Shown one piece after another: positions 381 through 58,657 of a stretch of 64,000 nt of DNA (position 1 is its first letter; each line of letters opens with the position of its first letter). Both the position numbers and the translations under genes were made by a program. The notes under the pieces are model-generated. The model did not search any database. It was not told the origin of the DNA and saw only the letters and a program-made list of their open reading frames with translations. This stretch comes from Fistulifera solaris (Eukaryota): positions 124,001 to 188,000 of the forward strand of contig AP026157.1 of the NCBI GenBank assembly GCA_030295235.1. Direction: 5' to 3'.

Positions 381-418
381 GTTAGTAGTAAATGTATGTT
401 ATTATTTGTAATGTTTTT

Positions 419-1882: not shown

Positions 1883-1936
1883 CTTGTGCCAAAATCAAAC
1901 ACACACCAGCATAACAGACACGAACATAACACCGTC

Positions 1937-4361: not shown

Positions 4362-4733
4362 ATGACTTTCCACTCCAAGATCTCGTTTTTCGTTGCCTTG
4401 GCCATCTTGGCCATGTCGCAGGCCCGAATTGAGGGCGACTTTGAACGCTCAGCCGTTTCTCGTTTGATTGACAGTTGCGAGATCATTCGTCCCATCATCG
4501 GTGGCGGTGATGACGACAGCGAGGATGATAAGAATACTGAAATTGACGATGGCGATGACGAAGACGATGAAGATGATCAGGATGATGGAGACGACAACGG
4601 TGATGATACGGGAGACGATACCGGAGACGATACTGCAGATGATACCGGTGACGACAATGGAGATGATACCGGTGATCACACCGGAGACGATACTGGAGAT
4701 GACAATGGAGACGATACCGGCGATGACAACTAG
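4362..4733 (+). CDS. Secreted Asp-rich acidic protein, family copy 2 (recent duplicate of copy 1)
   Basis: N-terminal ~55 aa nearly identical to copy 1, shorter GDDT/GDDN tail, and homologous 5' and 3' flanks. Confidence 0.85.
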   Translation: MTFHSKISFFVALAILAMSQARIEGDFERSAVSRLIDSCEIIRPIIGGGDDDSEDDKNTEIDDGDDEDDEDDQDDGDDNGDDTGDDTGDDTADDTGDDNGDDTGDHTGDDTGDDNGDDTGDDN

Positions 4734-10667: not shown

Positions 10668-11359
10668 GGCACAAGGGGGAAGCTGCTCGACATGCGTCGT
10701 AGATTGTTGCTTACATTAAAAAAATAGGACCATTCTTTCGTAGAGCATCTGTATTTTTTCTCATTCTTTTGAAGTCATGTGAGTCTCTATTGCAACTAGT
10801 TGATTGTCGTTTTTTTGCTCGTTGTGTCAAGATATCCCGAGGGAGCGGCTAACTATCATTCGCACAGCGCTGATTTCCTCCATCCTTCGTGGCCCGCTTC
10901 GATAAATCAGAACGCACGTTCACTCTCTCCTGTTGTTGCAATCAAGATTCAAGCAATAGTAGAATTTGCGATCCTACTAGCAAGAAATGATGTCAAGAGA
11001 TGGAGTCCTCAGGTATACCCTATGAGGATTCAATGTGAATGAACATGCTTCGTGTCGTCGCGGATTTCTTGGTTTATTCCTTCAGTATTATTTTTCGTAA
11101 ACGGCGAAAGTCAAGTCGTGCCGTGAACCGTGAAGAAATTAGGCACGGTAAACGTACAAACGAATGAGGTAACTCCGGGTTTCTTTGCTTAGCAAACGAA
11201 AAACAAAAAAATACTCCGGAGTAGTCTACTGGTACTGGTACCAGTACGGTACCCGTACTCCGTATAACCTTTGCAAACACGCTCTTCTCGCCGCTCTCTT
11301 CCCTTCATTCTTTCTTACTTCCTTCATACTTCTTTCCTTCTTTCATTCTCTCTGTTATC

Positions 11360-17800: not shown

Positions 17801-18591
17801 GGCCACCTGTCTCTGTGCCTGCGGTTTCCCCGTCAAAAGCAAAAGATGCGTACTCAGCAGACCTTTTCTCCAATGAAGCATCGACCTCAAAAATGAACGG
17901 TGTAACAAGTAGGCCTCAATCTTCACCATGGGCGAAAACTCGATCCTATGTTGCAGAAGGTCCTGGACAACGATCCTTAAAAAATAATGGCGGCGCGTCA
18001 ATATTCCCAAAAACTTCACCCTCGCTACAAGCACCAAAAAAGGTCGAAGAACCTGCTTTTAATGGAAATGGCAGTTCATCTAGTATTCGAAGCCGGGAGT
18101 CGAGTTTTCAAAGTGCATCGTCTCCGTTTCGAAACAGCTTTGGCGAGACACGACCTACGTGGGCGAAAAACGTAACTAATGAGGACTACGCCGAGTCATC
18201 GGATGCTAACTTAAGTCCATCTGCCCTGCGGAGATCTTGGCATGCAGGTGCTTCTCGTTCAGCTTCCTCTAAACCAGTGGAAAGTCGCCCGTGGCAGACC
18301 GAATCTTCCAAATCATCGTTGCCACAGCAAGATGAAACGTTGAAAGCGCTGTCCAGCATACACAGAAATAGTTACATCGGTAATCATAGCCCGGTGCAGA
18401 GTTTCAAACCGACTATGAAGATCAAGGAGCTTGCAGCGGCATTTGAATCTCGCTCGCCGGAAAAATCGTATGTTACTTCCTGTGATGCATCAACACCATC
18501 GGATGAAGAGTGTGGAGAGATTCCCATGGTTTCGCCTCCGCGGGTAGAGGAAGTCAGGAAATCATTGACTAGACAATTTGGACATATATAA
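14860..18591 (+). CDS. Large Ser/Pro-rich disordered protein with N-terminal coiled coil; 3 exons (14860-15096, 15191-15253, 15316-18591)
   Basis: GT-AG introns join in frame to give ...KNYRLAKEL-SELRVRHREESKTVTKLTMEN-MTLASKCRE...; the remainder is low complexity. Confidence 0.75.
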
Positions 18592-36067: not shown

Positions 36068-38283
36068 TTAGTAACATGCGGAGCAGCAGGGGCAATCGAT
36101 TTCGTTGCAATCAGCTTCTAACTTTATGCCCCGGCTACACCAGCTGTCAAATATAGAGCCAGTCAGGTCATTGGAATAAAATCGAAAGTGTAGCAGTTGC
36201 ATATTTTCCATCCTTGCGGGAAGCGACCCACTCAAATTGTTTTCTTCCAGATTCAACACGAGGAGATTGTTCAATCTACCGAGGCCTGCTGGGATACGAC
36301 CGGAAAGCTCATTTCGATCCAACTGAAGTATTTGCAGTTGTCGCAACAATCCAATTTCGTCAGGAATGGGTCCATTCATGTTGTTTTGACCAGCGTTGAG
36401 CGTCATTAAGCTATCAGAAAGCATGTACAGTTCAGGGAATAGGCTCCCCTGCAGCCCAGCCTCACGAAGTTCAAGGCCCGTCACCTGACCGCCCGAATTG
36501 CATGTTACGCCATTCCAGCTGCATTCTTCCGTATTTCCCAGCCATGAATCAACGCCGGCACTGTAAGCCAATCCAGCCAACGCAAATTGCTGGGAAATTC
36601 TCCATGAAGGCAATTCGGAGCTGCTGCGGGAAACCCAGTCAAACGCTCTTCCTGCTGCTGTGTTCATGTCGTCCAAATTGACCGTCGAGCTGGTGAGAGC
36701 GTCCATGATCGTGCTACGTACATCATCTGCCTTTGGGGTAGGTTCCAGCGTAGTGGCGGCGACGGTAGGAGAAGCTGTGGGTGGCAGAGTGGCGCGGGTC
36801 GGTGCCAAGGTTTCCACCAACGGGGCGGAAGGTTCTACCGTCGCAACAAAAGTAGGCCCGGGGGTGGCAGCCGAGGGGCGTTCGGTCGGTGGCACCACTG
36901 GAGCGGCGACAGGGGGGAAGAGGCACGGGTACGTTCGTGGGAACGCTTTCTTCACATAGACCACATGTAACAGGACACCATAGATAGCCTTCATTGTCAG
37001 GCAAGCACATACGATCTCGTTGAGCCGGATTATTTTGCAAGTAGACGCAGTCTTGATCACCGATTTCTGTGCTTATGCTGAACTTTTTGTAAGGATGATC
37101 GACGCAGTCTTCTTTCGACCAATTGAGCAATTTCGTAGGAGATGTTGTGGGGAAGGACGTCGGGGCGACTGTGGTACTATTTTCATTGGAATTCACAGCG
37201 CTCGATTGTGGAGTTGATTTTCCCGCCTGTTGTGCTAAGAAGCTTCCAACTGCTACGCCGACGGAAGCAACTAAAACAAAGCACAGTAGCGCCACGAGAA
37301 TATTAATTCGTCGCGGTGTCAAAAAGGGTTTTGGTGACGGTGAGGGAGGAGGCGATGAAGTCGAGTCTTTCGTCGGAGCTTGACTTAAAGGTCCCACATG
37401 TGGAATAATGATTTTGGTCGGGTATGGGAAAAAGTTGTCTGGCTTTGTGCTTTTCACCTCATCATTCATCTCACCTCCATCCAAGAACTCATCAAAATCA
37501 TCCACGTCACTCCCGACGACATTGTCATAAATTTCAGGTGTAGTGCTCTTTGGCTCGGTCAAATGAGACGTGTCGAGCTGTTCCCGAATATTGCTGTACG
37601 AATTAGCAAATATACTGTTGTTATTGTTGCTTCGTTCCGCGTTTGATACCGCGTCCATCTCGTTGCTGGATTGCATCCGCTCAAACTCAATCACAACTTG
37701 CGCTTCTTCGTCTTGAAGGCCCCTACGAAACGCTTCGCTGTCGTCATCACCGGAATCTTGTGAAACAAGGTGACGAGTATTGGCGATTCCTGCTGGGAAG
37801 ACGTCCGAATAATTGTCGTCCATTTCCGAATACTCCAGCTGTTCGTCCTGTTCATAGTCGGCGAGGTATTCTTCCGGTGGATCTTGTCGCTGGTCCGTGA
37901 CACACTCTTCGAGTGAATACTGGTATTGTTCTACGGAAGACTCGTTCGGCTCATCTTCGTGTTGCTCCTCATACTCCTGTGGCTGCTCTTCTTGCTGCAT
38001 TTCGTGTTCCACGTACTCTTGTGGCTGTTCGTCGTCGTGCTGCATCTCGTTTTCCAAGTAATCTTCGTCGTCGTGATGTAACTCCCTCACCACTGTAGGC
38101 TAGCGTTTGCTCGAGTTCTTCCAACGGCACGTCCCGTTCGGGCTCCGGCTGTTCTTCTTGCTGCAGCTCCTCTCCCAGATACTCTTGTGGCTGCTCTTCT
38201 TGCTGCAAATCTTCTTCTAAAAACTCTTGTGACTCTTCTTGCTGCTGCAGCTCCTCTTCCAAGTATTCTGACGGCTGCTCAGC

Positions 38284-38317
<34 letters not shown>

Positions 38318-38956
38318 AGCTCTTCTTCTAGATATCCTGGCGCCTGTGCGTCGGGCTGCTGTTCGGTGAGGTGCTCTTCCGCCGGATGGTGTTGCATTTG
38401 CTGCTCCTCTTCATACACTGGAGCCTCGTTCTCTTCCGGCTGCTGCTCTTCGACATACTGCGCGTCCTCTCCTTTCTGTTCTTCCTCGTACTCATCGGCG
38501 TACTCTTCGTTCTCGTTCTGCTCGTATAATTCCGCCTGTTTGTCGTCGTACAGCTCGTGTGGCTCCTGCAACTCCTGACCGACCTCATACTCATCGCTGG
38601 GTTGCTCTTCTTGAGTCTCCATGCTGGTTGCGGCGAGCTCATCATCGTCGGCCGGGATGACGACCGGCTCTTCCCGTGGAGCCACCGGATGAGACATCAA
38701 AACTTCGTCGTCACTCATGGGCTCGACACCACTCGACTCCTCGGTATCACTTTCATCGTTCGGGATGGCCAAGACATCAACGGCGATCGATTCGTGTAGA
38801 ATGGTGTTGGTTCGAAAGGACGTTTCGTAGTCATCTTCCGAAATTTGCGACACGACGAGGGGGATAATCCGGAACGAGCCCCGCTTCCGTCAAGATGCCG
38901 GAAACCATCGGCGGCTCATCCTTGTCGAGCTGCGGATGCTGCTCTTGCAAGTCCAT
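36068..38956 (-). CDS. Type II membrane protein: acidic E/Q-rich N-terminus, TM, ShKT-like Cys module, P/T stalk, LRR domain; apparent frameshifts near 38862, 38085 and 36915
   Basis: LTPRRINI + TM (LVALLCFVLVASVGVAVGSFLA); CVDHPYKKF...DCVYL...CLP...WCPVTCGLC; ECSWNGVTC LRR cap; LxxLxLxxNxLSGxIP repeats; C-terminal ADC..IDCPCCSAC. Confidence 0.8.
38285..38316. repeat. (CTG)n microsatellite encoding poly-Gln
   Basis: About 10 tandem CTG triplets. Confidence 0.9.
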
Positions 38957-40970: not shown

Positions 40971-41280
40971 AAGAGAAAGAATACTGTACTTTAGTCTCTC
41001 TAGTCCTGTTTAGTTGTATAGACTCTACTATCTGCACTCTAGAGGATTTGGTACTGGGAACTATAAGCACCATAAATCATAACTTGTTAAATGCTAAATG
41101 CTATAGTTCGCTTGTCAAGTTTAGGAAGCGCGACAGTCGAAAGTCGGAGGGAATCGACATGTTTTCAAATTTCAAAGTTGTCAAGGCCCACAATATCTTT
41201 GCTTCCAAACAGATAAACCTTTCACTAAATCGAGTTGCAACGACCTTCAAACTAAAAAACACAAAAAAATACGGAACATC

Positions 41281-44200
41281 ATGGCTGGCTTCACGGCAGG
41301 TGCCCTCTGGCTTCTTTTTGCCGCATCTTCCTTGTTGGCAACCCTCGGAGCACCGTCCAACGCGCCTACAATCAGCTTGGCACCGTCAAGTGCTCCAAGC
41401 GAATATACGTTCAATATTTCCGACTTGACAGGCGTCTTCAATGACTTGACGGAAATTACGGGACCTCTTTCCTCTCAAGACGTGCTCAACTCAAAGATTC
41501 CGTTCGTGGGCAAATCGATCAACGAGATGATCGGCGGTCAAGCTTCGACGACGATTGCGACCCTTCTTGACTTTTCTGGCTTTGTGAACTTCACCAAAGA
41601 CAGAAAAAACGGCGTATACGTTATATTCGATCGCAGTGCAATCGCTGCCGAGCTGACGGACTATTTGGAATCTTATGACACCACTGCAGATCTTTTGGCC
41701 GGTGAGGGTTGCTCGAAAAACATCGAAGCTTCCTATGAAGAAGGCGAGACAACAATGACTTTGGACTTTTGCGTGCTTTTTCAGCTGCCCAGAAGTTCCA
41801 CTTTAAGCGGGGATGGATTGTTTGACAGCATCCCTGATATCTTCGAGATCGACTTGGATGTGTCCCTCGACTTTCTGGCTACTCTCCTCTTCAAAGCTCA
41901 CCTGGAAATCGAGTTTGACGGACCGGGAGCCACAGCAACTATTACTGTTGACCCTATAATTGCCACCCTCGAGGCCAACGGGAATGTGGCTGTAACTGTT
42001 GGAGTAGGTGTGCTGGAACTCAAATCCGATGCAACTGCGGAGGTAGATGCGAGCTTCGAGCTCACGACGTGTGACATCACAGTAGAACCGTGTATTGATA
42101 TTGGTGAGCGACTAAGCACTTCGAATTTCTACTTGAAGCGCTCCGCGAGCTATTCGATCGCTGGTACTACGACCCTTGGCTCAACGTTCCCCGGACTCAC
42201 TCTTGGAAGTGACGCTGCTTTTTCAGTCGTAGAAAAGAACATTTTTGAGCCCAATCCCGAGGTCAACATTAAAGGATTCGTCAAAGAAGATTTTCTCAAC
42301 TTCAGCCCAGAGAACTCGGTGGCCATGCTTCGTTTGATCGACAGTGCAATCATACGTGCTCAGGAGAACGAAGCTTTCTATACGAACATTCCCTTGACGG
42401 ATACGAGTATCGCGGATGTGTTGTCGACGGGATCCTTGGTGACGACGAGTTTACTCAAGTTATTTCAGAAAGTCGAGCCGTATGAGGATCGGCCCACCAA
42501 ATCGCTCTGGCTGATTCAAAAAGATAACAAGGACGCTTACACCAATGACTCGATCAAGAACAAGACGTTTGAATTGTACTATCTGGCCGGGAAAAGTATT
42601 CCCAATACGGAACTGAATGTGAACCCTGATAATCAAAAAAGCTCTGCGTGGGCTAGTAAGTAAGGAAGGTGTCATATGCCCAATAAAGTTCGACAAGGAC
42701 TTCACGAGCTCGGTGGCGTTTAAAACCGAAATGTTGAAACTTTTGCAAGCAGATTGCCCTGCGCTCACTTTTTGCGATGCGAACCAATGCAAATTCGACG
42801 AAAGAAATAACGATTGCGACGAGTGTAAATTGGTTGTTGGGATTGGCAAGGAAGACCTTGTCTTTCTTGCCTCAAATGCCGACAACGATGTACATCTGAT
42901 CGGTTTCATGGAACCACTGGAATTTTCGCAGGGCGAAGGAAGTATTTACAAATTTCCTGTGAATACACCTGCTTACCCGTCTTTGATTCCTCGTTTCCGC
43001 AGTTGGGAAGACTTTACGGACCGCATCGAACAAGCCATTTCGAGTAGCGAACATATATCGGAGGCGAATGTTGATTTTAGGTACATCGAAGCAATCGATC
43101 AAGAAAAAGCGGCTGAATACGAACTGAGCATAGGTTTTTCGAAGACGGATTCGTTCCCAATCGCACTCAATGCTTCGGAAGGAATCGGAGACTTGATCGA
43201 CATTTCCGTGAGCGAGGGCTCTTCTCTTGACCTCACTGTGACCGCAACCTATACAACTAAGTTTGGTGTTATCCAACAAGCGAACGATGATGAACAGCTA
43301 ACCGTTTTAGCCCAAGCTTGTGAGGGAAATGGTCCCGTTTGCGATACTTCTTCGCTCGACATCAAGCTCTATTACGAAGACAACAATGATCCACAGCCGC
43401 AGTGGCGGAATGTGACGCTTCCTGGTGGACAGAATAAGCGTGTCGCACAAGTACTCAGTGAGACTTTCCGTGGCGTAGCTGACGTGACTGAAAAAGGCGT
43501 AAATAATTCACTCCTCGTGATTCGTTTCCTTCCGACGATCAGCGAAGTGAAATTGTTGCTGTTGAAGGTAAATAAATAATGACATGTTCGTTCAAAAGAG
43601 AAGTAAAAATACTCAGCTTATCGCTGTTCTCTCACTTTCTACTTCGTTGATATTGTATTGATCCCTTCAGAACTGCAACAGTACCGAAGATAAGACTAAA
43701 ATTGAACAGTACAACGTGCTCGAGTGTCGAAACAATGAAACCGTCTCTCCTATTGCAAACAACTACGGCTTGGAAGAATTTAGTCTTTCGAAGCGCCCTT
43801 GGCAGATTGGGATTGGAGAATCTTCAATTTCGGCAAACATTAGAGTTGATCTCGATGTCACGCTTTCGACAAATGTCGGAGGAGTCATTGAAGTGACGGC
43901 CAGTTTGAGCGGAAATATTACAGGATCCGTAAGCCTTTCTCTCGGAACCAGTGATCTTCTCCCTTTTACCGACTGGCTTGTGGGTCTCATTAATATATTT
44001 GATACGGATAACACGAGCGGGGGCTTTATTGCTGGTTTTTTCGATGCGACAGCGACCTTTAATGCTCGATTTGATGGGCTCGTCGAGCCAAGTTCTCCGT
44101 TTGATTGGCTGCCAACGGCTAATGCAACTGGAGGTTTCGCCCAGCCCTTTGAAATTGACTTCCTTTCGAAAAGCTTCTCGTATCCTGATATCGATTTTGA

Positions 44201-47200
44201 AGTAAATATTGAACGTATTGGTGACGTTCGGAAGCTCACATTTAGACAAGTAGTTGACATTCTAGGTGACGTCCTCGAGTTTTTGGTCGGAAGCAACGAC
44301 GATGACCAAGTCGATTCTTGCTCGGGTGGCCTTCTGGGACAAGATGCCTTTACATTTGAACTTCCAGGTGCGTTTCGATCGACTACTCAACAAATTTTTG
44401 CGGCCATGGTTTTATTAGTTCTCGTCACTCACAATATTTTGCTTCTTGTACACTAAAGTACTCGGAATCAGTGTATGCAGTACTGCGTCGTTTCTCCAAG
44501 TCGTCGTTGATGCCATAAAGGAGCTAGAAGACGAGACTTCTACCTCTGGCGACAAGACAACGACCACGTTTTCTTCTTTGCAAGTGAAATTGGAAACCCT
44601 TTTAAGGGACGGTGTAGGCGCAGAGCCCGATGTCAACATCACAACCACGTCGGATTCGATTCGTTCCGAACTTTTGGTGGAAATCACTCTTAGCTGGTCG
44701 TTTACTAGAATGGAGACATTTTTCTTGGATATGTCCGAGTACTTTACGCCAGAGGAACTTGATGCCAACAATGGTCTTGATTTCTTTGCAAACGCGCTGC
44801 TGCCAGGAACTGGAGAATTTAAATACGAGCTTGATGGATCGCTGATATTCACGATGGGTGTTGGGCTGGAATATGTAAAAGCGACGAAGAAAGTGAATCG
44901 TTTTGTGAGAGGGACGACGGGGTTGACATTAGAGTTGGCTGCAAAGGGGGGACTCGCTTATGAGTGCGCCGTTGGCATGTTCCAAGGGGATGTCACCGCC
45001 GATTTCATGTTCGGTCCGATGACACTTTCGGCGGGTCTAAATGACAATCTGAACTACTATCTCGACGACTCCGTGTCAGGAAGGCCTGGGTTCAAATCTG
45101 TGAACGGAATTAAAGGCCTTGTCTCAGAAGTAAAAACAAAGTTCTCAGGACAGGCCACTGCTAATGCGTTAATTGATTTGAGTTTGCTTGGCCTGTCTGT
45201 TGACGTTAAGGCTGAGCTTAGTGATTTGGACAAATTCTTTAGGGGAGACAAGTCCGTGTTGACCGTCAACTTCAATCCTCCTTCCCCGGACTTTACGGTT
45301 CCCACTTTATTGGATATTCTTCTTGCAGAGCCACAGGGTATCCTTGATGCTCTGGATGATGTATTCAAGACTGCAGAAGAAGCAGCTGTTGGCGAGAACG
45401 GACTTGTCACTCGGTTTCCTGTACCGTTCATTCGGAATGGGTTGGGAGACGCTCTTGGGGCAGGTACCTCGAATAATATTCTAGCGAAAGGGCGAAATAA
45501 AGTGATTCCCTTTTTACAAGAGGGTTTCGATTCTCTTGACATGAAGACAAACACAGTAGGTGGTGTGCTAGCGTCCCTGATGGATAAGGCTATGGATGCA
45601 GTTCAGCCAAGTCTTCGCCGGCAGGATACGTTCACAAATTTTACGTGCTACACCGACGGTGACAGTCAGCCAGTGGACTGCGAAAACGATAATCTTGTTA
45701 TTAAGTCAGTAATGTGGGAACTTCCATTTGGACAGTCCTTCACCATTGATCTCCCCCTCGATTTTGATTTGAATGCGGATCAATTTCCGCTTGAAATTGC
45801 TTTTGATGGCGGGCAGTCTAGTTTGACAATAGGATGGAATTTCACTCTTGCATTTGGATACATGGAGGGTCCGGGCTTTTTCCTCTATACTTTTCCCGAT
45901 GGTGTCCCAGAAATTTCGATCCAGGCAGGTCTAACAATTCTTGGCTTCACACTCGACGCGGCCTTGTTGTTCCTTAAAGGCTCACTCCAAAATGGGGATC
46001 TGAATGTCGCCGTTGCTTTGTATGTTGATATGGACAAAGGCAATGCACTACGACTGAAGTCGGAAGAAGATGAAACAGATCTCGAATACGGTCGCCTTAC
46101 CAGGGATTCCTTTCGTAAAATTACAAGAATTAGTGATCTTTTTGTTCCCGGTGCGACCGCCGCTGCTACTGTTGAAATTCCCAATGTCCAGTTTGAAGTC
46201 AGCGCTGATTTGTTAGGAGGGGGATCACAAGCGGAGAAAGTTATGGATTACATTCCCAAGCTCGAAGCTGAGATCTATGCTCATGCGCGAAAGAAGACTT
46301 CTGCTGATAATTCTGTGGAAAGAAAATTAAAAGTTGGCAGTGCGCAAAGGAGTTTCGTTGTACACCCTGCTCTCGCTGGGCATGAGACCGCTCCTCTCCT
46401 CCGTTCCTTGTCCGATTCCACAGACATTCTAGCGGACAACTTTGTGTTCGATGGATGCTCTCTTGATGGCAAGGATTTCTGCGCTAGCGTGAATAATGTG
46501 ACTATGGACATGACGAAAATTAGAGACCTGGTCAAACCGGTATTGGAAAATATAACCAATACAAATGGAACTGGTCTTCTCGACAAAATGGTCCGTCCAC
46601 TGATTATTTTGGAGGAAGAACTACCCGGGATTTCCGAAATTTTGAAAAAAAAGGTCACTGTCTTGGATATAGCTGAGGTACGCATAGATGATTGACTAGT
46701 TTTTACAATTTTTTTATTAAAAGAACGTACTGACATCATCTTCCTTAACGACTAGGCCATGATTGGTTCAAAATCAGGCGCGCCATCAGTTCGAAAAATA
46801 ATCAGGACTTATAGAGAGATCAACGATTTTCTCGAAGGCTTCTTGGAAAAAGGTGGCTTACTTCTTGCCGATAAATGCGATCCGCTTGATGGCTTTAAAT
46901 CTTGTATTGGCGGCGCCATAGGCAGTCGAAGGCTGACGACGCGTGTCCCTGACGAGATGAATCAGATTTTTGATTTTGAAGACACATCAAGGCAACCCAC
47001 CTTCCCTTCGCATCTACTCGAGAAAGAACGAGAACTGGAAACTGATTGTAAAACGGATGCATTTGTTCTTCCAACGTGCGCAGGGACCTGTACCGGCTGC
47101 AAAACACTTGAGAAAGCAAAGTGTCTACAACGATACCTTGCCTGTAAGGGAAAGAGTGTGAATGGGCTGACGTTTCCCTTCATGAGCGATTTGGCGAGCG

Positions 47201-50200
47201 TGGCCGGTTTGCTTTCGGGTGGTGACATTGTAAGTAACTTTCGCGTTGGCACCGCTCTTCGCAGCTGACTCCTCACTCTACCTACAGCAAATTGTCGACT
47301 TTTCACCCGATCCCGTAACTTTCGCTTTCAATTATGAGCTATTTTTCGTTCTTTATACACCTCCAACAGTGAAGCTGACAATTACATTCGAATTTTCTGC
47401 TGTTTTGAGAGTCGGGTTTGTTTTGGACAGCAAGGGCATCAGAGAAGCCGTCGAGCAAGAGAAGCCTATTAAGGCACTGAACAGCTTTGCGCTCAAGGAC
47501 ACCTTTGATGGCGTTGATGAAGCGATGATTACACTGACAGCATCCGTAACAGTTTCCGTGGACGTCAGCGCTGTGATTGTGAAGGTATGAATGGTTTTCA
47601 GCGAGTGTATTGGTTGATTGTTTTTGACTGCGTCAAGCACTGACAATTACTGCTAAATTGTACAGGTGGGCGTCTCTGGAAAGATTACCTTCATTGTGTT
47701 TGCCGATTTGTATGATCCTTTCCCGGATACAAGCGGTGGCCTGGTGCGTCCGTACGAACTTCTAACGTCAGGTTCGAACCCGCTGGAGTGGTTCGAGTTC
47801 GGAATCCAGATCTTTATTACGATTTCGCTCTACATCAAAGTCGGTCTTTTCATCGGTTTGATTGAGATCACTTTATATCAGTATGAAATCAGCTATAAAT
47901 TCGATTTGATTCCGCCGCTCATTTTTCGGCCAGCGATTGATGGTATGCCCATTGAAGCGACAGAAGATGGTTCACTTCTGCTGTCTGCGGGTGCTGACGA
48001 TCTCGAATGCACCGGTCTCGAGGGAACGATTGGAAACGAGCGCATTGAATGCATTGAAGGACTCGGTATTCAAGACTTTACTGGGGTAACGAAGATTACC
48101 GATTCGAACGCCATTGCAAGCATCGCATCGTCGTCATCTGAAGTACTTTTTCGAAGTATGCGATCGGAAGTTTTTACGCCCGATACGGCTTATAAGGCTA
48201 TCACTTTTGATTATAAAACAGGGACCGAAATTTTATCAAACGACCGAATTTGGATCTTTTCAAACGAGGTCTTTATTGGAAGCTTTCACATGGATTTCAA
48301 AACGATCGAAAAGGCTGTCATTCAACTACCTACTCCGGAGCAATCCTTTCTCACGACCACCATTAATGATTGCAACACGGCTTGGGAATTCGACGGTCAT
48401 ACCAACATCATGATCAACGCCACTGCGTTCCAAAGTGGATGCACTATCGTAGCCAACGGCGGAATGCACACAGATGCAAAACTAACAATCGATTTTGGGT
48501 TTGAAGACGACTTAGATTGTGGCCCTGGGAACATTGTAAAGCTAAGTACGTCAGGGGGGCAAGTTGGTGGTTGACATCACCAGGGCGGCTGACGCTATCA
48601 CGAAGCAGTTTACTTTCGGTTCTCCATTTATCTACGTTGATATCAAAATGTCAAAGTGTGATGACACTGTCATCATTGAGAGTTCCACGACTAATCCAAA
48701 AGGATACATTTCCATTCAGACGGGGCTTGGTAACGACGAAATTATTATTGGCACCGAGTCGGCTGGACTTGCTGGTGTTTCCGTTCGCGTGATTGTCGAT
48801 GGTGGCGATGGTGATGGCGATAATGACACATTGACAATCAATGACAAAGGTGAAACTCTGGGAAGAACGAGCGGTGAGCTCACAAGTGCCTCTGTGCTGG
48901 GGTTGTTGTTTGGTTTAGATGGGAAAATGACCGATATTGAGTTCGAGGCGATTGAAAGAGTGAATCTATATCTGAGCAAAGGGCTGAATAAGTTCCTTGT
49001 CACGTCTACTCCACGCTACTCCAATACTTCTCTTTACTTCCAAGATCAGACCGATGTTTTGAATGTGACCACTACTCAGGGCAATCTGTCTGTATTTGGC
49101 AGGGGAGGCAGCGATCAGTTTTACATTTACGGTGCAGGGGACAACTCCACGGTCATCGTGTTCGGGGATGAGGGAAATGATACTTTGCTTGTTGACGGCA
49201 CGGGTGCAAACAAATCTGCTTTGGTCAACAAGCTAAATACTTCAACCGTGTATTGGAGTGGAGGTCCGAACGACGACGAAATAAAAGTTGTCTTTACTTC
49301 GACTGGATCAACTAATATTCATCTGATTGACGATATGGGTGTAGGAGTCAACAATTTGGCAATCGAGTGTTCTGACTTCTTTCCTTGTTCTGTACTGAGT
49401 CGTCGAAACTTTATCGCCAATATTCACAATGTGTCTGATATCAACTCGACTGTGGAACGAATTAGTGTGGAAATTGATCGCGTCATTTTAAACAGGGTCC
49501 AAGTCAACTTGAATAATGGGGAAAACGAAATGTATTTTGATGATACGCTGGGGGAGATGAATGTCTTCGGTGGCGATGATGCAGATTGTAAGTAGCTTCA
49601 TGTCGTGCATTTTAAAAAGGACTGCTTCTAACCGTGAAATAAATACCAGCCTTTTACATCGGACAGCTATACAATTCAGAACGAAACGAGACTGCAAAAG
49701 TGAAAATCAGCGACCCAATCCGTACGACCGCTACAACCAAGGGCTACTTGTCGGATGGTAACTCCTTCCCGCTTTCAATTAACGGCGGATTCGGCAATGA
49801 CTTTTTCGATGTATTGCGAAACCGTCAGCTGCTGGATTTGAATGGCGACTCCGACGATGATCTTTTGTTGTACGGTCATTTTTAGCTCTAGACTTAGATT
49901 CCGATGGCAACCCTATTGAGAATACGACACTTGGGAATGCTTCCATAGCGGGAGGGGGTGGTTCAGATACCTTCGATCTTTCCGGTGTGAACGACAACTC
50001 AACCGAACTTTCGCAGTTGCCTGACTACGTGGTCAACTCTTTAGTGGACATTGACGGCGGGACCGGCAACGATAAACTTATTGTTGTGGGAACCGAAGCA
50101 GACGATAGATATGTCATTACCGCTGGTTCAGTCTTTGGTGGCGGGTTGACTGTGTCGTATACCAATATTGAAGCACTTGCTCTTACGGGCGGACCTGGCA

Positions 50201-53200
50201 ACGACACGCTCACTGTTCTTTCCACCAGTCCAAATCTTGCGGTGTAAGTCTTGTGTATGTCTGGTCTCCTTTAAATAACTGATTTACAGGGAGTAAATAC
50301 ACTCATCTTGCTTTTCTTCAGGTATTTATACGGCGCCGAAGGCTCTGACACTTTGTGATAACGCCACGTAACGTAGGTTCAGTCGTTTCGAAGAACCTTC
50401 GTGGTCATCGGGGTATACTCGAGCACTCAGTGTCCAGTGCTGATCCTCGCTACAACGGTTTGGCTGTTGAAGGCGTTGCTGTCGATGTTCTTGATAATGA
50501 CGGCAATTCAAGCGCTTATTTCAATGTGATAGAAACCGAAGCAGTTCATGTAATGGACGAAGATGGACTTGGCACTTTTTCTTTTTGGTTGTACCCCACA
50601 GTCGATCCAGACCCTCGGGTAACGGTCCAAGTCGCAGCGCAAACGGACGTGCGCGGAAATGCGAGGTTACTTTTGAACGGACAGAATCGAACAGCTGTGG
50701 AGCTTGTATTTGAAACGGCAGCACCACAAATGATAACTGCATCCTTCAACCAAGCTGGAGTCCGTCTCAATATCACCGACTACAACCTGTTGATCACTCT
50801 CAGTGTAGTTGACTTGAAATCCCCTGATAGAAGGTTTAACACCACAGATCAAACTATCCGCCCAGTTTCCGTCAAGCTTCTCCCAGGGCAAAAGAGCGCG
50901 CATGCGAAGTCCGTTACGGTAGTCGAGCCGAGTGGCTACACGTACGTCGGAGAAGGCGACAAAGGATGGTCCAGTTCGTACGATGTATACCTACGGCCGT
51001 GCACTAGTGCTATGATTGACGATACTATAGTTGAAATCGCTCCGACAGAGTTCGGTAGGGTGGAAGTGAGCCCTCCAGTCATCGATTCCGCTGCCTGGGG
51101 AAATGAATTAGGCGGCTGTAAAGTGACCGTTCAAGTCACTCCTGTTAAAGATGACAATGAAGAAGGAATTCACTTTGTGACTTTGGCCCATAAAGTCTTT
51201 GATTCTAATTCAGAAAGCATTCGTCTCTCTGATGGCAGCACGTTGTATGCCGACAGCGTGTTGGTTCGTATCTACGACGATTTAGTTCCCAATGTCATTG
51301 TCCAGGAGAGTATGGGTGTCACAAGCACTGCAGAGCTGGACCAGGAAGTGATCGACCTTTACCAAATGAGTCGTTTTATGTAGACTCGTACACGATCCGT
51401 CTTGCTAGCGAACCCACCGATAATGTTGTCATTACCATCAAGTCAGTTGCCAAGGCGAGCGACTACCGCAAATTGAAGAATACTGATGAGAGAGTACAAG
51501 TTCTGCTTGGTGACGCTGGTAAGGAGACTGAAGTCATTGAACTGAACTTCACCAACACAACTTGGTTCATAGAGCAAACGGTCCGTGTCATAGCCAAAAA
51601 CGACAACGTGGAAGAAGGCGTCGACCTGCTTCACTTTCCAGACCAGCCATCTTTCCTGGCTTATATTCAAGGCCCTATCTTTATCGAGGGGGATATATCT
51701 ACCGATGTTCCACCCATCCGCGATGCTGTACTTTTTCCAGGAGAGATCGACACGGCAATCTACGCACTAAAAAGAATTGCGCCGTCAGAGCTGGTTTATC
51801 CTGAATCGCAAGTAGATACGCTCAAGATTTTCAACATTGACGTACAAGGATCCAGTCCATCTGTAGGTTTCTTGAGCAGTTCGCAGTTCTCTGGATACAA
51901 CATGGCGAAAGATCTCATTATCAGCGGCGAGAAACAGCAGGACGGAATCACATACAGAGGGATGGAGGTTATCGAGTTTTACCTTGGGAACGGGGTAGAT
52001 ATTTTGACCGTGGAAAGTTCATCTGCGGCTGTCCACTATGTCGACATGAGCGATGGGGACGATACGGTTGCAGTGAAAAATATATCTGGTCACTTTGTCG
52101 TTCACGGCGGTGACGGGTCTGACACTGTCACAATCGCCTCGGACAATTTGACAGTGGATGCAATCAAGGGTCTTCTTGCTTTTGATGGAGGCAACGGCGA
52201 CGCGGACATCGATCATCTCATTATCGATAATTCTGGTGACACCATCAACGATGATTTATTGATCGTCACCCGATCCACGGTGGAGACGAAAACCATGTCC
52301 AACACAGACAACGACGAATCTAACATTCCACGTGATGTGTTCATCTTTAACCTTCGAGATGCAACTGGCGGATCATTTAACCTCACTGTACACGATCCTG
52401 TAAAGACGAAGACGAAAGAAATCGAGATTCCGTACCCGACCAGTAGCAAAATTATCGAAGAACGACTCCAAGATCTCATCTTTCCGGTCGCGGAAATGTG
52501 TGGCAAGAACGAAACATCGTTCTGTGCGGAAACGGTCAAGGTGTATGCGGTTGGAGATGAAGCGTTCGCTGTCTTCTTTTTGGGCGAGCGTTTGAACAAA
52601 AAAGTGACGCTAACCCTAGAAACGTCCGGCCTGACCAATTTTACGCCCGAGATGTTCATGAACCAAACTAATGACATCCTTCGCCAAAACGCCGATCTGG
52701 CGTACGTTGATGTCGAGTTGCTCGATATAACAATGGGAAGTCCAAATAGTTCAGACTCTAAGGTTGTCGTGAATGTGAGAGGTACGACTGCCAATACTTC
52801 AATTACAACCCAAGGTGGCGACGACGATGTGTTCATCTCATCCGAGGCGAATGAAAACGTGACGACTTCGAGCTCCGTCGACTTCTTGCATGGCTGGCTT
52901 GATTACATTGAACGTCATCTGACAATCAATGTCGGCAAAGGTCGCCATCGACTAATGATATCCGACGAAAGCAGCAAAGTCGGAAAAGGTCCTGCGATAT
53001 TCTCCAACAATTCGTTTACGGCCATCCATAAGGATGTTGCTGATATCTTTTTGCTGCAAATGGTGGAAATTGGATTAGCGGCGTCAATTTGTGGCTAAGT
53101 CCAGAAAACGATGAGGTTAGCGTTGTGTCCATTGCATCCGATCCAACATCTCCGACTCTGCAGACAACTACATCAGTTCACTGTGGTGAAGGCAACGACA

Positions 53201-56200
53201 CTCTCACGATTGCGATCGACGAAGCATATACTGTGTTTGTAGCGAATGGCCAAGGAGGCGATGACATTTTGGACGCCTCTTCGTCTTCCGTTCCTGTTAT
53301 CCTGTTTGGCGATGGGGGCAGGGATTTTCTGATTGGCGGCACGAACAATGACTTGATATTCGGAGACTTCGGTCGAGTATTGTGGCGATCGCCATCCAGT
53401 AATATATTCAAGGCCAATAACATTGCGGCTCAAGCAGGTGGAGGCGGTTACGGCGATTTCACAGATGGCGTTCTTCGATTTGTGACGGATGCTTTCTCTC
53501 TAGCGTTCGACGAAGGAGACAGTGATGTCATAGTTCTGGGTGAAGGCGATGATTGTGCTATTGGAGGATTCTCCGATGACAACATTTCGGGGGACCTTGG
53601 TAACGACATTTTGGTAAGTCTTTCTTGCTTTGCTACGGCAAAATGGCTCGCTTTCGCTCACACATTTTGTTCGTCAGTTCGGTGATTCCGCGCAAGTCCT
53701 TTTCGACATGGACACTGGCAACCTGACGTCTTTGTCCACATTGGGCTGTGAGCACGGTGGAAACGACGAGTTGTCGGGAGGAGAAGGAACGGTGAATTAC
53801 TTAATAGGCGGCACTTTCAACGATTCGATTTGGGGCAGTAGTGCAATGGACCTTGTGTTTGGAGACCACGCAAGCATCAGTCTTTACGCGGATTTATCGC
53901 ATAAACTTCGAATCGCCAAAACGGTGGAAGCTGCTTGTGCCGGTGGCTCGGATATGATTTATTTGGGAGCAGGTGACGACATTGTAAGTATGAACGCCAT
54001 AGATTCTATTCTCGTTTGTACAATGTTCTTTCTAATCAATACTTTCGCTCGATAGGCTTTTGGAGGTGCGTTCGGCGACTACATTGAAGGCAACGAAGGA
54101 CAGGACGTGATTTTGGGAGACTTTGGAGTTTTCGACGCGGAAACCGAGTTCGTGAATCACCAGAACTATCAGAGCTTCATTGAGTTTCCTGAGTCAGCAG
54201 GCAATGATGAAATTTACGGAGGCGACGGCGATGATTTCATTTTGGGGCAAGAGGTACGTCTGATGAGCGTGCAAAGTCATAAATTTTCCATTTTCCAATC
54301 TAAAGCTTCGTTCACTGTCGCATGGAACCCATTCTATTCGCTAGGGATCCGATAAGTTGTACGGCGAAGCAGGCAATGACGACCTGTATGGCGGCCACAA
54401 CATTGATTTTGGCGCTGATACGGGAGACGAGTTGAGCGGTGGCCGTGATGAAGATTCAATTCTTGGCGATAATGGGCAAATTGTGCGGCGGCTTGTAAGG
54501 TCAACTTCTACCTTCCCTTGGATAAACGGAATGATATGGCTGAAGTACACCGAGCCCTTCAATACCGAAGTAGTTCGCGAGATCCGACGTTACGATGATA
54601 TTGACGAAATTGGGGTACGTAGAAACTTGTGAATCGCTGTAAAGGAGAGCCAAGCTACACTGCCAGGAGCTTACCGCGTTCTTCAAATTTGCAGGGCAAC
54701 GATTTGATCGAAGGAGGCGATGGAGATGACGTGCTTCACGGCCAAAGAGGTGACGATGGTAGGTGAAAGACTGCTAAGCAGCGCCCATGAATCTCAGTTC
54801 GCACATCTCATACTTTTCGCTCTTTTTTTCCACGTTTCCAGTTATCAATGGTGGCAATGGACAAGATGGTAAGTAGAGCTCAAAAATATTTTAAGCCGGA
54901 GCAAATTGTTGCGAGTCCGAAGTCTTACCCTCATTGCTCGACTTATCATAGAAATTTACGGTGAGCTCGGCGCAGACACGCTATCGGGCGGAGATGGATC
55001 TGACGTTATTTTGGGCGACGTTGGATACATTGTTCGCCGTTACGAAAAGGACGGCTCCGCTCGTCTTAACACGGACGGAACATGGCACAAAGATATTGTG
55101 CTAGAGGAGGTTGGATACATTTCAGGCGTTGGTCGCATCTCGAAGAAACTAGATGTGAAGACATCCGCATTAAATTTCACGAGCGTCATGTCTGCATCAC
55201 TTCTGTTCGCCGCACCTGCGTACACAGCAAGCGGGGGTAAATATGGTACCGGTGGGGATGACTGGTTAACCGATCTGATTCAGTTTGAACTTGTCGACAG
55301 CTTCGACGATGTAATAGATGGCGGAGATGGCAGCGACGTCCTCATTGGGCAAAGAGGTAGTGATCAGATAAACGGAGGATCAGGAAATGATCTGATTATT
55401 GGGGACGCTGGGTGGAATGTGGTCCCTGTGCACATGAACTTGCCCCAAATATACCAAGTGTATCGAGCTTTGCGCGACAAGTCAGACAGCAACTATCTTG
55501 TCGAAGGTGTCTCTGATAAGGAATACGGAATTTTGTTTACAGCGGAATACGAGTTGTATCCGGACCAGTACGGCCAGGTTGATGTTCTCGGGTCTATTGT
55601 TGACATGGTTCTGAACGCGGATCACGTGTTGAGTGGCCATAATCTTCTCCGCAATGTTCTTAAAGTTGCTGGTATCAGTACAAAGGATGGTAAATATTGT
55701 GTGCATCCTATGTTCCGCATTACACCTGGTTTTTTGCGGGAAAATCAAAGAATGCACGGAAACGATAAGATCACTCCAGGGTTTGGTGATAACTTGGTAG
55801 TTGGCGATGACATTAGAGCTTTTTCGGGAATCGACGTCTCGGATGTTTCGGAAATTGTGAGTTTCCAGCGCCGCATTGATAACTTGGTAAGGGCACTTGG
55901 ACTTCGTCTTAGTACAATGGAGGTAGATCAGGAATCCTTTTCGGGAGGCGTGATCGGGCCATACGATATCAGTGTAGGCAACGATGAGATCAAGACATCT
56001 TCTGGTGGATTTTCTCTCGTAACCGGAGACACAATGACTTTGGTAGCGCGAACCATCGGATCGGGATCATTTGTTAGCGGCCGGCGTCTCCGTTTGGACG
56101 CGGACAAGCTCAAGTCAATGATGCAGCGGCTAGCCGACGTCGAGCGCATTCTGTGGGATGTGAATATTTGTTTGTATGAGCTGCACACAAACTTATTGAC

Positions 56201-57190
56201 AAATATGACCGCAAAGTATTCCAACCAGATCGGTCAAAAATCGACACATGCACTATCGCTCGCGAATGACTTCATCACATCAGATGGAAATGGGGATATC
56301 TTGATTGGTGACTCGAGTCTCCTCTACTTCCACGTGGACAAATCACCAAGGTCTTATAAACTTCGATACATTACAGAGTCACAACGGAGATTTGTGACGC
56401 GGAAACTGCGGGATCTTCCGGGCAAACTGAAAAGTTCTTTGATTTCTCATATAAGCAGATTATCTCGGTCCGTCCCATTCGACAAGCCAGTCCCGTTCGA
56501 TGATATCCCTTTGCATTGACGGTTGGGTCGGACAAGTTTCAACAAAATATGGCGGTCAATCTGGCGGCTGGTGACTTTGCTTTTTTCGGGTCCGTCGTCA
56601 CGTACCAACAACCTAATGCTGGATCGCTCTCCCAATACACGCAATCCGTCAAAAATGTTCGTGCAAAACTCGCTTCGGATGATCCAGTGGCTTCTCTTCA
56701 GTTTGGCATGCGATTCTATGACAAAAGATATTCTCAGTTACCCACTGTGTCAAGACCAAAACTTCACGGCGACTCTTTCACGGGTCTCGATAATAGCAAC
56801 GCCATGCTGGGTGAGTTCTTGACCGGGGAAATGTACAACACAATTGACAGTGCTGATGTCACTCGGGTTGCTGTCGATGCGAATGCCTTTTCTTCGTCTG
56901 CGGCACAGGACTTTGCTGGTGACTACTTCAAAGTTAAAGCTGGAACGGCTGCCAATGGCCAGTTTGGACCCGACGTTTCCGTGGACGGAATGGAGATCAA
57001 CGCTCCAGTATCCTCTGCAATCAAAACAAGCATGGAAGGACTGTTCTTGGGGCATCGCCTAATTCAGGATATACAAGAGATTTTGTATAAAAGAAGCGAC
57101 CAGCTGCGAGCTCATGCAGTTGGTTCCGTTTCGGCTGGACCTCATTGTTCCGACGCCGAATCATCGTCCACAATTGCTCCAGCCGCCTAA
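41281..57190 (+). CDS. Giant (~4,960 aa) secreted RTX/hemolysin-type Ca2+-binding repeat protein, adhesin-like; 13 introns and 7 apparent frameshifts
   Basis: Signal peptide MAGFTAGALWLLFAASSLLATLG. Many GGxGxD nonapeptides (GGFGNDFF, GGTGNDKL, GGDGSDTV, GDGGRDFLIGGTNNDLIFGD, GGDGDDFILG, GGSGNDLIIGD). Calx-beta/Ig-like segments (VTPVKDDNEEG, FTNTTWFIEQTVRVIAKNDNVEEG). GT-AG introns: 43568-43670, 44368-44458, 46678-46755, 47230-47287, 47585-47665, 49588-49649, 50244-50321, 53614-53677, 53984-54055, 54254-54344, 54615-54694, 54759-54841, 54869-54951; all splice in frame. Confidence 0.82.
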
Positions 57191-57495
57191 GTATTACTTA
57201 TTTTCATCGTTATCGCACGTTAAAGCGATTAAATGGCAAATTGTATTTACTATTTTTTCTGTAGTCAGTTTTAAGTCAAGAAGAATTTTGCAGAGGCTGG
57301 ACGTGTAATTGGTGTAGGGGTTCCGGCAATACAAGGTAGCCCATGCCTGAAATCAAGTCGTTTTAACAAATAAAGAATGACTATATCCATCTTATGTAAA
57401 ATAATATTGAACATTAGATTTAGATCCGTGCGGTTTTATCCTTTCACTTGACTACTTTCTATTGGAATTGTGCTTGCAGATCCTCTTTCGTTTCA

Positions 57496-58657
57496 TTAAT
57501 CACACGGTAAAATCTCACAAATATTGAAAGGGCAAGTACGACAAAAGAAGGATGAAGAGGTGGGTGCCGAAGTCGATACGATCGTCTCCCTCGACTGTAG
57601 GAGGCATTGTTGCTGCAATCGTCGGATGTGCAGTTGGCGGAGACGTCAGTTTGGCAGTCGGTCCTGGCGTTGGTTCTTCTGTTGGCGCTGGAGTCGGTTT
57701 TTCCGTTTCCTCGACTTCTTCTAACGTCGGAGGGAAAGTGGGAGAGATAGTTGGAACAAGGGTGGAGCGTGACTCTGTATCCACAGATGGTGTGACGGAT
57801 ACAGCGATCGCGGGAGCCCTCGAGAGACGTATGGGCGTTGGAGAAATCGTCGGAGCAAAATTTTTGAGACACAAGCCACACGTGACAGGACACCAGCGGT
57901 GACCTTCTTCTACCGACAAACACATTCGAGCTCGCTGATCCAGATTGCTTCGCAAGAACATGCAATCCTGTTCACCGTACTGATCGTTGATTTTGAACTT
58001 TTTGTAAGGATGATCGACACAATCTCCGTCACTCCAATTGAAGGAGCCCGTTGGAGGTGCCGTCGGAGACTGTTCGGGAGCGTCAGTGTTGAGCTGCTCC
58101 GTATCTGGAACTGTAGGATCAATATCAATATCGGTATCCGCATCGGCATCGACTTGAATCTGAGACGGCGATTCATTCCTTTGTTGCACCAGGAAGCTGC
58201 CAAGCGCTACCGCTATCGAACCCAAGAAGATAGTACACAACACAACCATGATAATTTTCAGTCTTCGTGGCGTCGGAATCGGGTCGTTATTCAAATCCTT
58301 CATCTCTGCGTCGCTGGGAAAGAGGGTATTTGGGCGAAACGTCGAAGCATCATCATGATTTCCATCACTTTCTTCATCATCGACACCATACACTTCGTCG
58401 TAGGTTTCAGGCGTACTGGTAGTCTTATCTTTCACGTCATCAACGGAAATAGTCTCGTCTGCTACGGATATAGCATCGTTGTACGTGTTGAGCGGCAACA
58501 CCCCAAATTCCCTCATCACACGCCCCTGTTCGGCTTGTACGGCCCTTCGAAAAGCTTCATCGTCATCTTCTGGATCCAAAGTGTTGTGAATTACGGAAGA
58601 GTCTCCTGACTCGGTGTAAATGCCCGAGAGGACTGATTCATCATCGTTAGGATACAT
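57496..58657 (-). CDS. Type II membrane protein with ShKT-like module, P/T stalk and C-terminal 4-Cys motif (paralog; frameshift near 57585)
   Basis: SGIYTESG, DDDEAFRRAVQAEQ, TPRRLKI+TM, CVDHPYKKF...WCPVTCGLC; a shifted frame ends PTSAPTSSSFFCRTCPFNICEILPCD*. Confidence 0.8.

Follow-up and report, generated by a model that had tools for sequence, protein, structure and literature searches.

A 14-exon gene for a giant RTX protein in Fistulifera solaris and its relatives among bacterial giant open reading frames

Type I secretion in bacteria has its textbook substrates in the repeats-in-toxin (RTX) proteins, whose repeats do not fold until they meet extracellular Ca2+. A locus of the diatom Fistulifera solaris poses a direct question: how would a half-megadalton protein built on Ca2+-triggered beta-rolls cross a Ca2+-rich secretory pathway, and what does the alga gain from it? 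The locus lies in a window of 64,000 nucleotides, the whole stretch of DNA analyzed here (assembly GCA_030295235.1, contig AP026157.1, positions 124,001 to 188,000 of the forward strand), and all positions below are counted from its first letter. A preliminary description, made from the letters of the window, had proposed that positions 41281-57190 hold a giant RTX adhesin-like gene of bacterial type that was domesticated in a eukaryote. Our analysis leads us to favor, with some reservation, an intact diatom gene of ancient bacterial acquisition whose product would be a secreted, Ca2+-dependent structural or adhesive protein.

An intact, transcribed gene of 14 exons

Between 41125 and 57190, 18 long plus-strand open fragments follow one another in changing frames. 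Joined together, they form one gene at 41281-57190 (+) with 14 exons, 13 introns, and a single reading frame after splicing. Its product is 4,962 amino acids (aa) long, with X at seven places where the frame slips by 1 nt; there is no internal stop, and the sole stop codon is at 57188-57190. These figures reproduce the earlier count (~4,960 aa, 13 canonical introns, and seven slips), and splicing and correcting the model, proposed at the time as a check, gave one uninterrupted frame over the whole of 41281-57190. All 13 introns are of the GT-AG type, measure 58 to 103 nt, and mostly start with GTAAGT or GTACGT. The gene is laid out as follows.

41281-43567, plus strand: exon 1, aa 1-762, opening at the first ATG of the frame; without a Pfam family
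43671-44367, plus strand: exon 2, aa 763-994; the next junction is read through in metagenome loci L004, L005, and L007
44459-46677, plus strand: exon 3, aa 995-1734; central beta-rich domain without a known family
46756-47229, 47288-47584, and 47666-49587, plus strand: exons 4-6, aa 1735-2631
49650-50243, plus strand: exon 7, starting at aa 2632; opens a 540-aa module in common with bacterial giant open reading frames (ORFs)
50322-53613, plus strand: exon 8, aa 2830-3928, the longest exon
53678-53983, 54056-54253, 54345-54614, 54695-54758, and 54842-54868, plus strand: exons 9-13; all six flanking introns seen spliced
54952-57190, plus strand: exon 14, aa 4217-4962; last RTX run, then a ~600-aa tail without a family or a bacterial match
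43568-43670, 44368-44458, 46678-46755, 47230-47287, 47585-47665, 49588-49649, and 50244-50321, plus strand: introns 1-7
53614-53677, 53984-54055, 54254-54344, 54615-54694, 54759-54841, and 54869-54951, plus strand: introns 8-13

Exon 13, of 27 nt, encodes exactly one RTX nonapeptide. Two boundaries called for a choice. The end of intron 7 was set at 50321 rather than 50437, since the residues encoded upstream of the latter position are conserved in relatives, and 42656-42752 was taken as coding read-through instead of an intron because reads place a 1-nt indel at 42635.

To judge the slips, we compared 41000-57500 with contigs of four public runs (X1 to X4). Runs X1, X3, and X4 are from the same organism, while X2 is a wetland metagenome from another study; X1 and X2 are of the DNA type, unspliced, and cover the whole stretch. 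The window has a surplus base at 42635 (run of A, exon 1) and 48554 (run of G, exons 4-6) and is missing a T at 49862 and 50351 (module region), 51357 and 53047 (exon 8), and 56509 (exon 14); all seven slips fall inside homopolymer runs of A, G, or T. Every one of them is corrected in contigs of both X1 and X2, and four are also corrected in X3 and X4, which leave the other three sites uncovered. Since the corrections come from contigs of two independent studies, the slips are assembly errors and not decay; the gene is intact, and the base calls of the window are wrong at homopolymers. The slips first described are thus present in the window as given but are no feature of the gene. The seven frame interruptions would otherwise have suggested a decaying pseudogene with real frameshifts, a reading that we consider extremely improbable, given in addition that in-frame stops are missing and that synonymous changes are in excess relative to the X2 copy described below. 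A further homopolymer indel, in intron 1 (43593), is common to X1 and X2, and another, in intron 3 (46709), was found in X2 only. Counted between 41000-57500 and the independent contigs, there are eight single-base homopolymer indels in 16.5 kb (seven coding and one intronic), and similar errors probably break other genes of the assembly. Any automatic annotation will break up the gene at such indels; its orthologues in other places pass unnoticed as "hypothetical protein."

Seven of the 13 introns (6 and 8-13) are missing, with GT..AG joints in their place, from spliced contigs of X3, X4, or both, and a single X3 contig spans six introns (53752-55678). No RNA run is recorded for the stretch and the RNA label of X3 and X4 is a guess, but the spliced contigs themselves show that transcripts exist; parts of the gene outside their cover, all of exons 1 and 2 among them, are neutral as to expression. 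The gene is transcribed, with real spliceosomal introns, and the junction evidence proposed as a further check is in hand for these seven sites; the evidence for introns 1-5 and 7 consists of frame continuity and the end-to-end alignment to an F. solaris orthologue, P0160. The X2 copy is 99.86% identical to the window, with 23 substitutions in 16.5 kb, of which 6 are non-coding, 10 synonymous, and 7 non-synonymous. There are more synonymous changes than neutrality predicts (rough ratio of non-synonymous to synonymous rates, dN/dS, of 0.2, on few sites), which is a sign of selective constraint. The presence of this copy in a wetland metagenome also places the organism or a close strain in such a habitat.

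Could the locus hold several adjacent genes instead of one? No one transcript contig runs over all of it, and exons 1 and 2 are uncovered in X3 and X4. After splicing, however, the locus is one frame, collinear with single F. solaris proteins of 4,978 and 4,979 aa, and its order is kept in L004, L005, and L007 as well as in two long metagenome proteins, P0006 and P0064. The locus is one gene, and we regard a series of separate genes as very unlikely. The RTX repeats and the matches to bacterial giant ORFs could likewise raise the suspicion of a bacterial contaminant contig or a chimeric assembly. This has next to no probability in view of the 13 spliceosomal introns, seven of them seen spliced, and of the surroundings: in the 40 kb upstream lie genes for an HSF-type factor, a diphthamide-synthesis protein, PP2C, an amidohydrolase, and leucine-rich repeat (LRR) proteins, all in keeping with a eukaryote; G+C is even over the window (0.43-0.52), and the gene matches its flanks; metagenome contigs of X2 pass without a break across either end of the gene, joining it to its upstream and its downstream flank; and F. 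solaris orthologues are annotated. The gene is nuclear and stands in a eukaryotic context.

The two orthologues are FisN_2Hh003 (P0160; GAX22955.1; 4,979 aa) and FisN_2Lh003 (P0173; 4,978 aa). The window protein is 73.3% identical to the former over 4,995 columns with 56 gap positions (model residues 4-4962 against 5-4979) and ~72% identical to the latter, the pair being 84% identical to each other. On these figures alone, the annotated pair would come from a related but different organism. Judged by sequence, the window gene is the orthologue of both: the proteins are collinear from end to end and agree in the RTX region, in having a signal-like N-terminus, and in a C-terminal tail that is nearly the same. 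The locus had been put forward as the best candidate for an undescribed system; it is not entirely undescribed, these two orthologues being already public as hypothetical proteins, which are uncharacterized and give no functional clue. The last ~17 residues (57140-57187) are nearly identical between the window and the F. solaris orthologue despite the 73% overall identity, and this conserved end may be a sorting or processing signal.

RTX repeats and the remainder of the protein

The window protein has a mass of ~536 kDa and an isoelectric point of 4.33, with 9% Asp, 9% Gly, 48 Cys (1%), and 58 N-x-S/T sequons. The following features were placed on it.

41281-41352, plus strand: signal-peptide-like N-terminus, ~24 aa
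53300-55401, plus strand: RTX region (PF00353) over exons 8-14; coordinates good to ~3 nt
~54191-54389, plus strand: tandem nonapeptide run, 4 units
~54606-55014, plus strand: tandem nonapeptide run, 6 units
~55321-55401, plus strand: tandem nonapeptide run, 3 units

PF00353 (HemolysinCabind) matched 5 of the 17 fragments scanned, four of them above the curated cut-off of 23 bits, and a 518-aa piece scored 38.7 bits. It was the only Pfam family found on the window fragments (within 53044-56519), and the same was true of FisN_2Hh003. We counted 11 strict GGxGxD motifs and 43 GxDxU cores, with 13 nonapeptides in strict 9-residue register. On this sequence evidence the RTX repeats are real, i.e., tandem GGxGxDxUx nonapeptides, although the "dozens of GGxGxD nonapeptides" of the preliminary description were an overstatement. 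Introns 11-13 (80-83 nt; 54615-54951) cut the 6-unit run. L005 and L007 read through all three of these sites, and the introns therefore look lineage-specific.

Calx-beta/Ig-like segments had also been proposed. The Pfam Calx-beta model (PF03160) did not match 50352-51356 even at E<=1, nor did it match any other fragment. In hhalign, however, a profile of 50352-51356 aligned to a bacterial segment with 94.9% probability (E 4.8e-8, 221 columns), and that segment itself passes Pfam Calx-beta with 29.3 bits against a cut-off of 27. What stands of the proposal is thus a likeness to a Calx-beta-bearing bacterial segment, and not a direct match. An AlphaFold2 (AF2) model of 50352-51356, made from four sequences only, had a predicted local distance difference test (pLDDT) score of 39. 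BLAST of the window protein against itself (E<=1e-3) found no internal repeats, a method that very diverged repeats would escape. Because of this result no tandem extender array is assigned to the protein, and "adhesin-like" does not hold in the sense of tandem Ig extender repeats.

The "long beta-rich region" of the preliminary description fared better. Modeled by AF2 from 63 sequences, the central 721 residues reached a pLDDT of 85.2 and a predicted template modeling (pTM) score of 0.63; the model consists of long antiparallel beta meanders with a helical insert. The query was 44530-46695, and its last six residues are intron read-through (18 nt past the donor at 46678), which left the results unaffected. 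Foldseek with this model gave no match at E<=0.001. VIA-align scores of Z 7.6, the best, to outer-membrane and autotransporter barrels (root-mean-square deviation, 14-15 Å) and of Z 6.2 to the TamB beta-taco do not rise above background, and no fold was assigned. Among solved structures, a sequence search matched none of the non-repeat parts and the RTX part only weakly (E no better than 0.012), two ESM Atlas queries stayed below recognition level (one cluster with 21% Calx-beta members was not used as evidence), and a word-index search with the longer window proteins found no match. In all, ~3,000 residues of the protein are without a known fold or family.

Residues 1-24 are hydrophobic and signal-like by hydropathy (Kyte-Doolittle windows >1.6), with small residues at -3 and -1 before Ala-Pro, and FisN_2Hh003 has its N-terminus laid out alike (hydrophobic, with small residues before Ala-Pro). 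This agrees with the signal peptide claimed earlier, and we treat the signal-like N-terminus as a predicted endoplasmic reticulum (ER) signal peptide. By Kyte-Doolittle, no C-terminal hydrophobic segment of the transmembrane or glycosylphosphatidylinositol type was found in the window protein. The hydrophobic N-terminus, the non-hydrophobic tail, the 48 cysteines, and the 58 sequons together would favor secretion.

Relatives in eukaryotes and bacteria

Where does the gene come from? A phmmer search with exon 3 against 1.84 billion representatives had 230 matching proteins at E<=0.001, of which 50 reached E<=1e-30. They are for the most part metagenome pieces the size of an exon, and the long P0006 (1,996 aa) and P0064 (4,406 aa) are collinear with successive exons. 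Of nine metagenome loci examined, three (L004, L005, and L007) match the gene collinearly, beginning in its first or second exon and reaching into the RTX part; GT-AG introns break them into same-strand ORFs. Most intron sites of the window gene are read straight through in relatives; the intron after aa 1892 is common to L007 and L002, and the one after aa 2631 is common to L002. Because relatives hold introns, at least two of them at positions in common with the window gene, the family is by its sequences an old resident of intron-bearing eukaryotes. In P0006, residues 454-572 give a weak match to Ricin-B lectin (26 bits, below the cut-off), which has no counterpart at that position in the window protein; F. 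solaris frustulins are described as carrying a Ricin-B lectin-type domain in the available text on them (PMC4712521).

Relatives of another kind were found in bacteria. Profile searches A1, A5, and A6 each covered 401 genomes of one bacterial phylum, that of a Gammaproteobacteria genome, and three non-RTX blocks matched giant open frames (2,683-16,090 aa) in 7 to 16 of them. The parts concerned are listed here.

49650-51356, plus strand: 540-aa module (exon 7 and the start of exon 8), aa 2632-~3171; a GGxGxD-bearing block, then Calx-beta-like sandwiches
L023 6345-18827, L024 4241-18409, and L025 4970-19999: bacterial giant ORFs, 4,161 to >5,010 aa, nearly cysteine-free

Profile A1, of the central domain, matched 16/401 genomes in open frames of 2,683 to 16,090 aa. 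We re-scored nine segments, each from a genome with both matches inside one open frame, and all nine gave the two matches in the same order (profile ~399-470 and 667-755). The block at aa ~1880-2073, within aa ~1850-2100, matched the L025 ORF with 45 bits (i-E 4e-11 at Z=1e6). For the module, profile A6 (exon 7 block) matched 7/401 genomes at E 1e-15 to 1e-22, and profile A5 (exon 8) matched 9/401, including all seven A6 genomes. The A6 matches lie directly upstream of the A5 matches in the same frames (4,345-13,628 aa), in the order seen in the window. BLAST of the 541-aa module against bacteria gave identities of 26 to 43% and E down to 1e-44, with one alignment covering all 541 residues.

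The giant ORFs of L023, L024, and L025 have a G+C of 56 to 62%, 0.05 to 0.08% Cys, and 11 to 21 GGxGxD motifs. L023 and L024, the two that were scanned, carry N-terminal LEPR-XLL and DUF4347, RTX repeats, and two-component regulator genes upstream, and L025 has GAF-HlyD and PqqD/peptidase-M50/HlyD genes directly downstream. Two of these three ORFs end in a similar short "...WGS" tail. P0174 and P0175 are uninterrupted, cysteine-free metagenome proteins with several blocks in common with the window protein and in the same order. P0174 (5,518 aa) combines the central-domain cores with the blocks at aa ~1880-2080 and aa 2594-2907 and with RTX, all in diatom order, and P0175 ends in a metalloprotease-like domain. 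A separate one-pattern scan over 185,579 prokaryote species had a single match, L001 3503-3712, which is an FtsK 4TM region and was rejected as a false positive; the scan says little for or against bacterial relatives.

A maximum-likelihood tree of the 540-aa module was built from 15 rows and 485 columns and is unrooted; it omits P0064, which had no match to the module by BLAST, L005, whose module is interrupted by an intron, and the partial L002. All five rows of eukaryote type fall into a single clade (100/100 support), which a stem of ~2 substitutions/site separates from eight bacterial rows. P0175 groups within those bacterial rows, and P0174 stands on the bacterial side. Within the eukaryote clade, the window and the F. 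solaris pair are separated from L004 and L007 by a path length of 1.6.

Taken with these distributions, the sequence evidence points to one ancient transfer. The direction, from bacteria to the eukaryote, is inferred from ~2-4% of the sampled genomes carrying blocks, from RTX proteins being overwhelmingly bacterial, and from only one named eukaryotic genus being known to carry the family. The transfer was not recent, because the eukaryote-type clade is long-branched and deeply diverged (1.6) and because at least two intron positions are in common. Bacterial ancestry of the core is in our judgment likely. The horizontal acquisition first proposed is thereby supported in part, insofar as bacterial kinship extends beyond RTX and the eukaryote-type copies form a single 100/100 clade, with the reservation that it was not recent and that its direction comes from distribution only. 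The family searches and phylogeny suggested for it had the same mixed outcome, with PF00353, the non-RTX block matches, and the one clade on one side and the unmatched Pfam Calx-beta and an unrooted tree on the other.

The strongest competitor on origin supposes no whole-gene transfer from bacteria, that is, either eukaryotic assembly from promiscuous extracellular modules or transfer from a eukaryote to a bacterium. Calx-beta domains are present also in animals. The genomes with the central domain (16) and those with aa 2632-3171 (7) are separate sets with none in both lists, ~1,000 N-terminal and ~600 C-terminal residues have no bacterial match, and the tree is unrooted. P0174, on the other hand, holds several blocks and RTX in diatom order within one cysteine-free 5,518-aa frame on the bacterial side of the tree, and bacteria provide diverse and common carriers (4% of sampled genomes), compared with one named diatom genus. 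RTX proteins are also described as overwhelmingly bacterial in the available text of a survey (PMC3034196). We hold the competing origin to be rather improbable.

Several observations weigh against an ancient whole-gene acquisition followed by secretion, and we gather them here. The bacterial central-domain matches are short (70-100 aa, 20-45 bits), and the profile searches that gave them sampled the one phylum named above. The first ~1,000 and the last ~600 residues remained without a bacterial match. Different bacterial proteins hold different blocks, and no single verified bacterial frame holds them all, P0174, which has no taxon label, coming closest; the ancestor could accordingly have been a module assembly rather than a whole gene. 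A tree of 15 rows, without a root and with a stem of ~2 substitutions/site, gives neither the direction nor the date of a transfer. Of the relatives, the two F. solaris proteins are the only ones with a taxon label, F. solaris being the sole taxon name obtained for 24 proteins looked up. The N-terminal region of the window protein is without a basic residue, and, as said above, the transcript contigs leave out exons 1 and 2 and none spans the whole gene.

On our preferred reading, an ancestor of these algae would have gained a giant RTX gene from a bacterium, once and long ago. Its lineage would then have gained N-glycosylation sequons, spliceosomal introns, and cysteines, which make up 1% of the protein compared with ~0.05-0.1% in bacterial relatives, and the putative ER signal peptide would now sit where L023 and L024 have the LEPR-XLL motif and DUF4347.

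Possible role of the protein and its genomic neighborhood

What might such a protein do? Among its bacterial counterparts are the giants with LEPR-XLL (NCBIfam NF012209) and DUF4347 (PF14252), which range from 4,000 to >16,000 aa. They resemble the window protein in having the two central-domain cores in order, the aa ~1850-2100 block, and RTX; giant size, acidity, and richness in Gly and Asp are likewise in common with the bacterial-side relatives (composition from P0174 and P0175). In contrast, the window protein has introns, 1% Cys, and a eukaryotic signal-like N-terminus, and neither LEPR-XLL nor DUF4347 was found by Pfam/NCBIfam in FisN_2Hh003 or the window fragments, whereas both are present in L023 and L024. 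HlyD-type export genes adjoin one bacterial locus (L025) of this comparison set. For DUF4347 giants a biofilm role has been proposed, in silico only, in the text available to us (PMC13723633). A second bacterial set (4,345-13,628 aa, 7/401 genomes), together with P0174 and P0175, has the ~540-aa module in common with the window protein. In P0174 and P0175 the module is followed by RTX repeats, and both lie across the 100/100 branch from the eukaryote-type copies.

RTX adhesins are described, in the accessible parts of two papers, as giant and Ca2+-dependent, with an RTX beta-roll near the C-terminus and repeats that stiffen with Ca2+ (PMC7493085, PMC10523503). Those of the LapA, MpIBP, and FrhA type, giant Ca2+-dependent surface RTX proteins with type I export, are like the window protein in their RTX part. 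Unlike them, it has no tandem Ig-like extenders, continues for ~600 residues after the last RTX run, and would be exported via the ER. A retention module was not recognized by Pfam/NCBIfam in exon 1 or FisN_2Hh003, a search that a diverged module could escape. We accordingly describe the gene as a eukaryotic, intron-bearing, ER-type variant of the bacterial giant RTX class and not as a classical tandem-repeat adhesin.

Among diatom proteins, the nearest precedent is the Trailins, which, in the text available of their preprint, are very large secreted proteins of adhesive trails with a bacterial-derived Choice-of-Anchor-A domain (10.1101/2023.03.06.531300). They are comparable to the window protein in being large and secreted, with a bacterial-derived domain, and in their link to adhesion. 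Choice-of-Anchor-A (PF20597) itself matched neither any window fragment nor FisN_2Hh003, and the words "RTX," "hemolysin," and "calcium" are absent from the main text of that preprint as available (10.1101/2023.03.06.531300). Frustulins, Ca2+-binding diatom cell-wall glycoproteins that are small and have acidic cysteine-rich domains according to the available text (PMC4712521), are a functional analogue only, without a sequence relation. In a literature search, which most subscription journals lay outside, no paper on an RTX giant of diatoms or other eukaryotes was found.

By analogy with these systems, the protein would enter the ER by its predicted signal peptide. Its RTX beta-rolls and Calx-beta-like domains would bind Ca2+ and become stiff, both within the Ca2+-rich secretory pathway and once outside the cell, where the protein could act as a very large Ca2+-dependent structural or adhesive part of the cell surface or extracellular matrix. 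This role, a secreted matrix or adhesive protein stiffened by Ca2+, we advance tentatively, at somewhat less than an even chance. A secreted protein that is neither adhesive nor structural is the less probable course, for instance a Ca2+-dependent lytic or defensive exoprotein, an enzyme carrier, or a luminal Ca2+ buffer (in the ER or for silica deposition). Such a function would fit the ~3,000 residues without a known fold and the metalloprotease domain of P0175, and RTX proteins do include toxins and enzymes besides adhesins in the parts of the survey available (PMC3034196). Against it, Pfam/NCBIfam scans of the window protein and FisN_2Hh003 recognized no catalytic or pore-forming domain, and in size, acidity, and Ca2+-binding beta modules the protein is like a typical matrix or surface protein, although this is resemblance only.

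A bolder form of the structural reading is also conceivable, though we think it unlikely in full. An ancestor of raphid-type diatoms might have taken over an entire bacterial exoprotein gene and moved its product from type I secretion to the ER route; the head would have been lost, a signal peptide, introns, disulfides, and glycosylation gained, and RTX kept working, so that the protein would now be a major Ca2+-dependent, load-bearing part of adhesion, gliding, or the biofilm matrix. In that event it would be the first RTX protein of a eukaryote to have its cellular role defined and, beside the Trailins, a second independent bacterial input to diatom adhesion. More generally, should the protein belong to the surface or the adhesive matrix of diatoms, it would matter for gliding motility, biofouling, and the formation of benthic biofilms, and it would strengthen the view that some of the extracellular toolkit of diatoms was built from bacterial genes.

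Elsewhere in the window, three further stretches were noted.

36068-38889, minus strand: three overlapping ORFs (36068-37072, with LRR matches; 36723-38099; 37969-38889)
15226-18591, plus strand: 1,121-aa open frame without a Pfam family
9543-10719: 1.1-kb stretch open in four frames on both strands

The first looks like one gene split by introns or by a similar indel error, and the last suggests low-complexity or repeat sequence.

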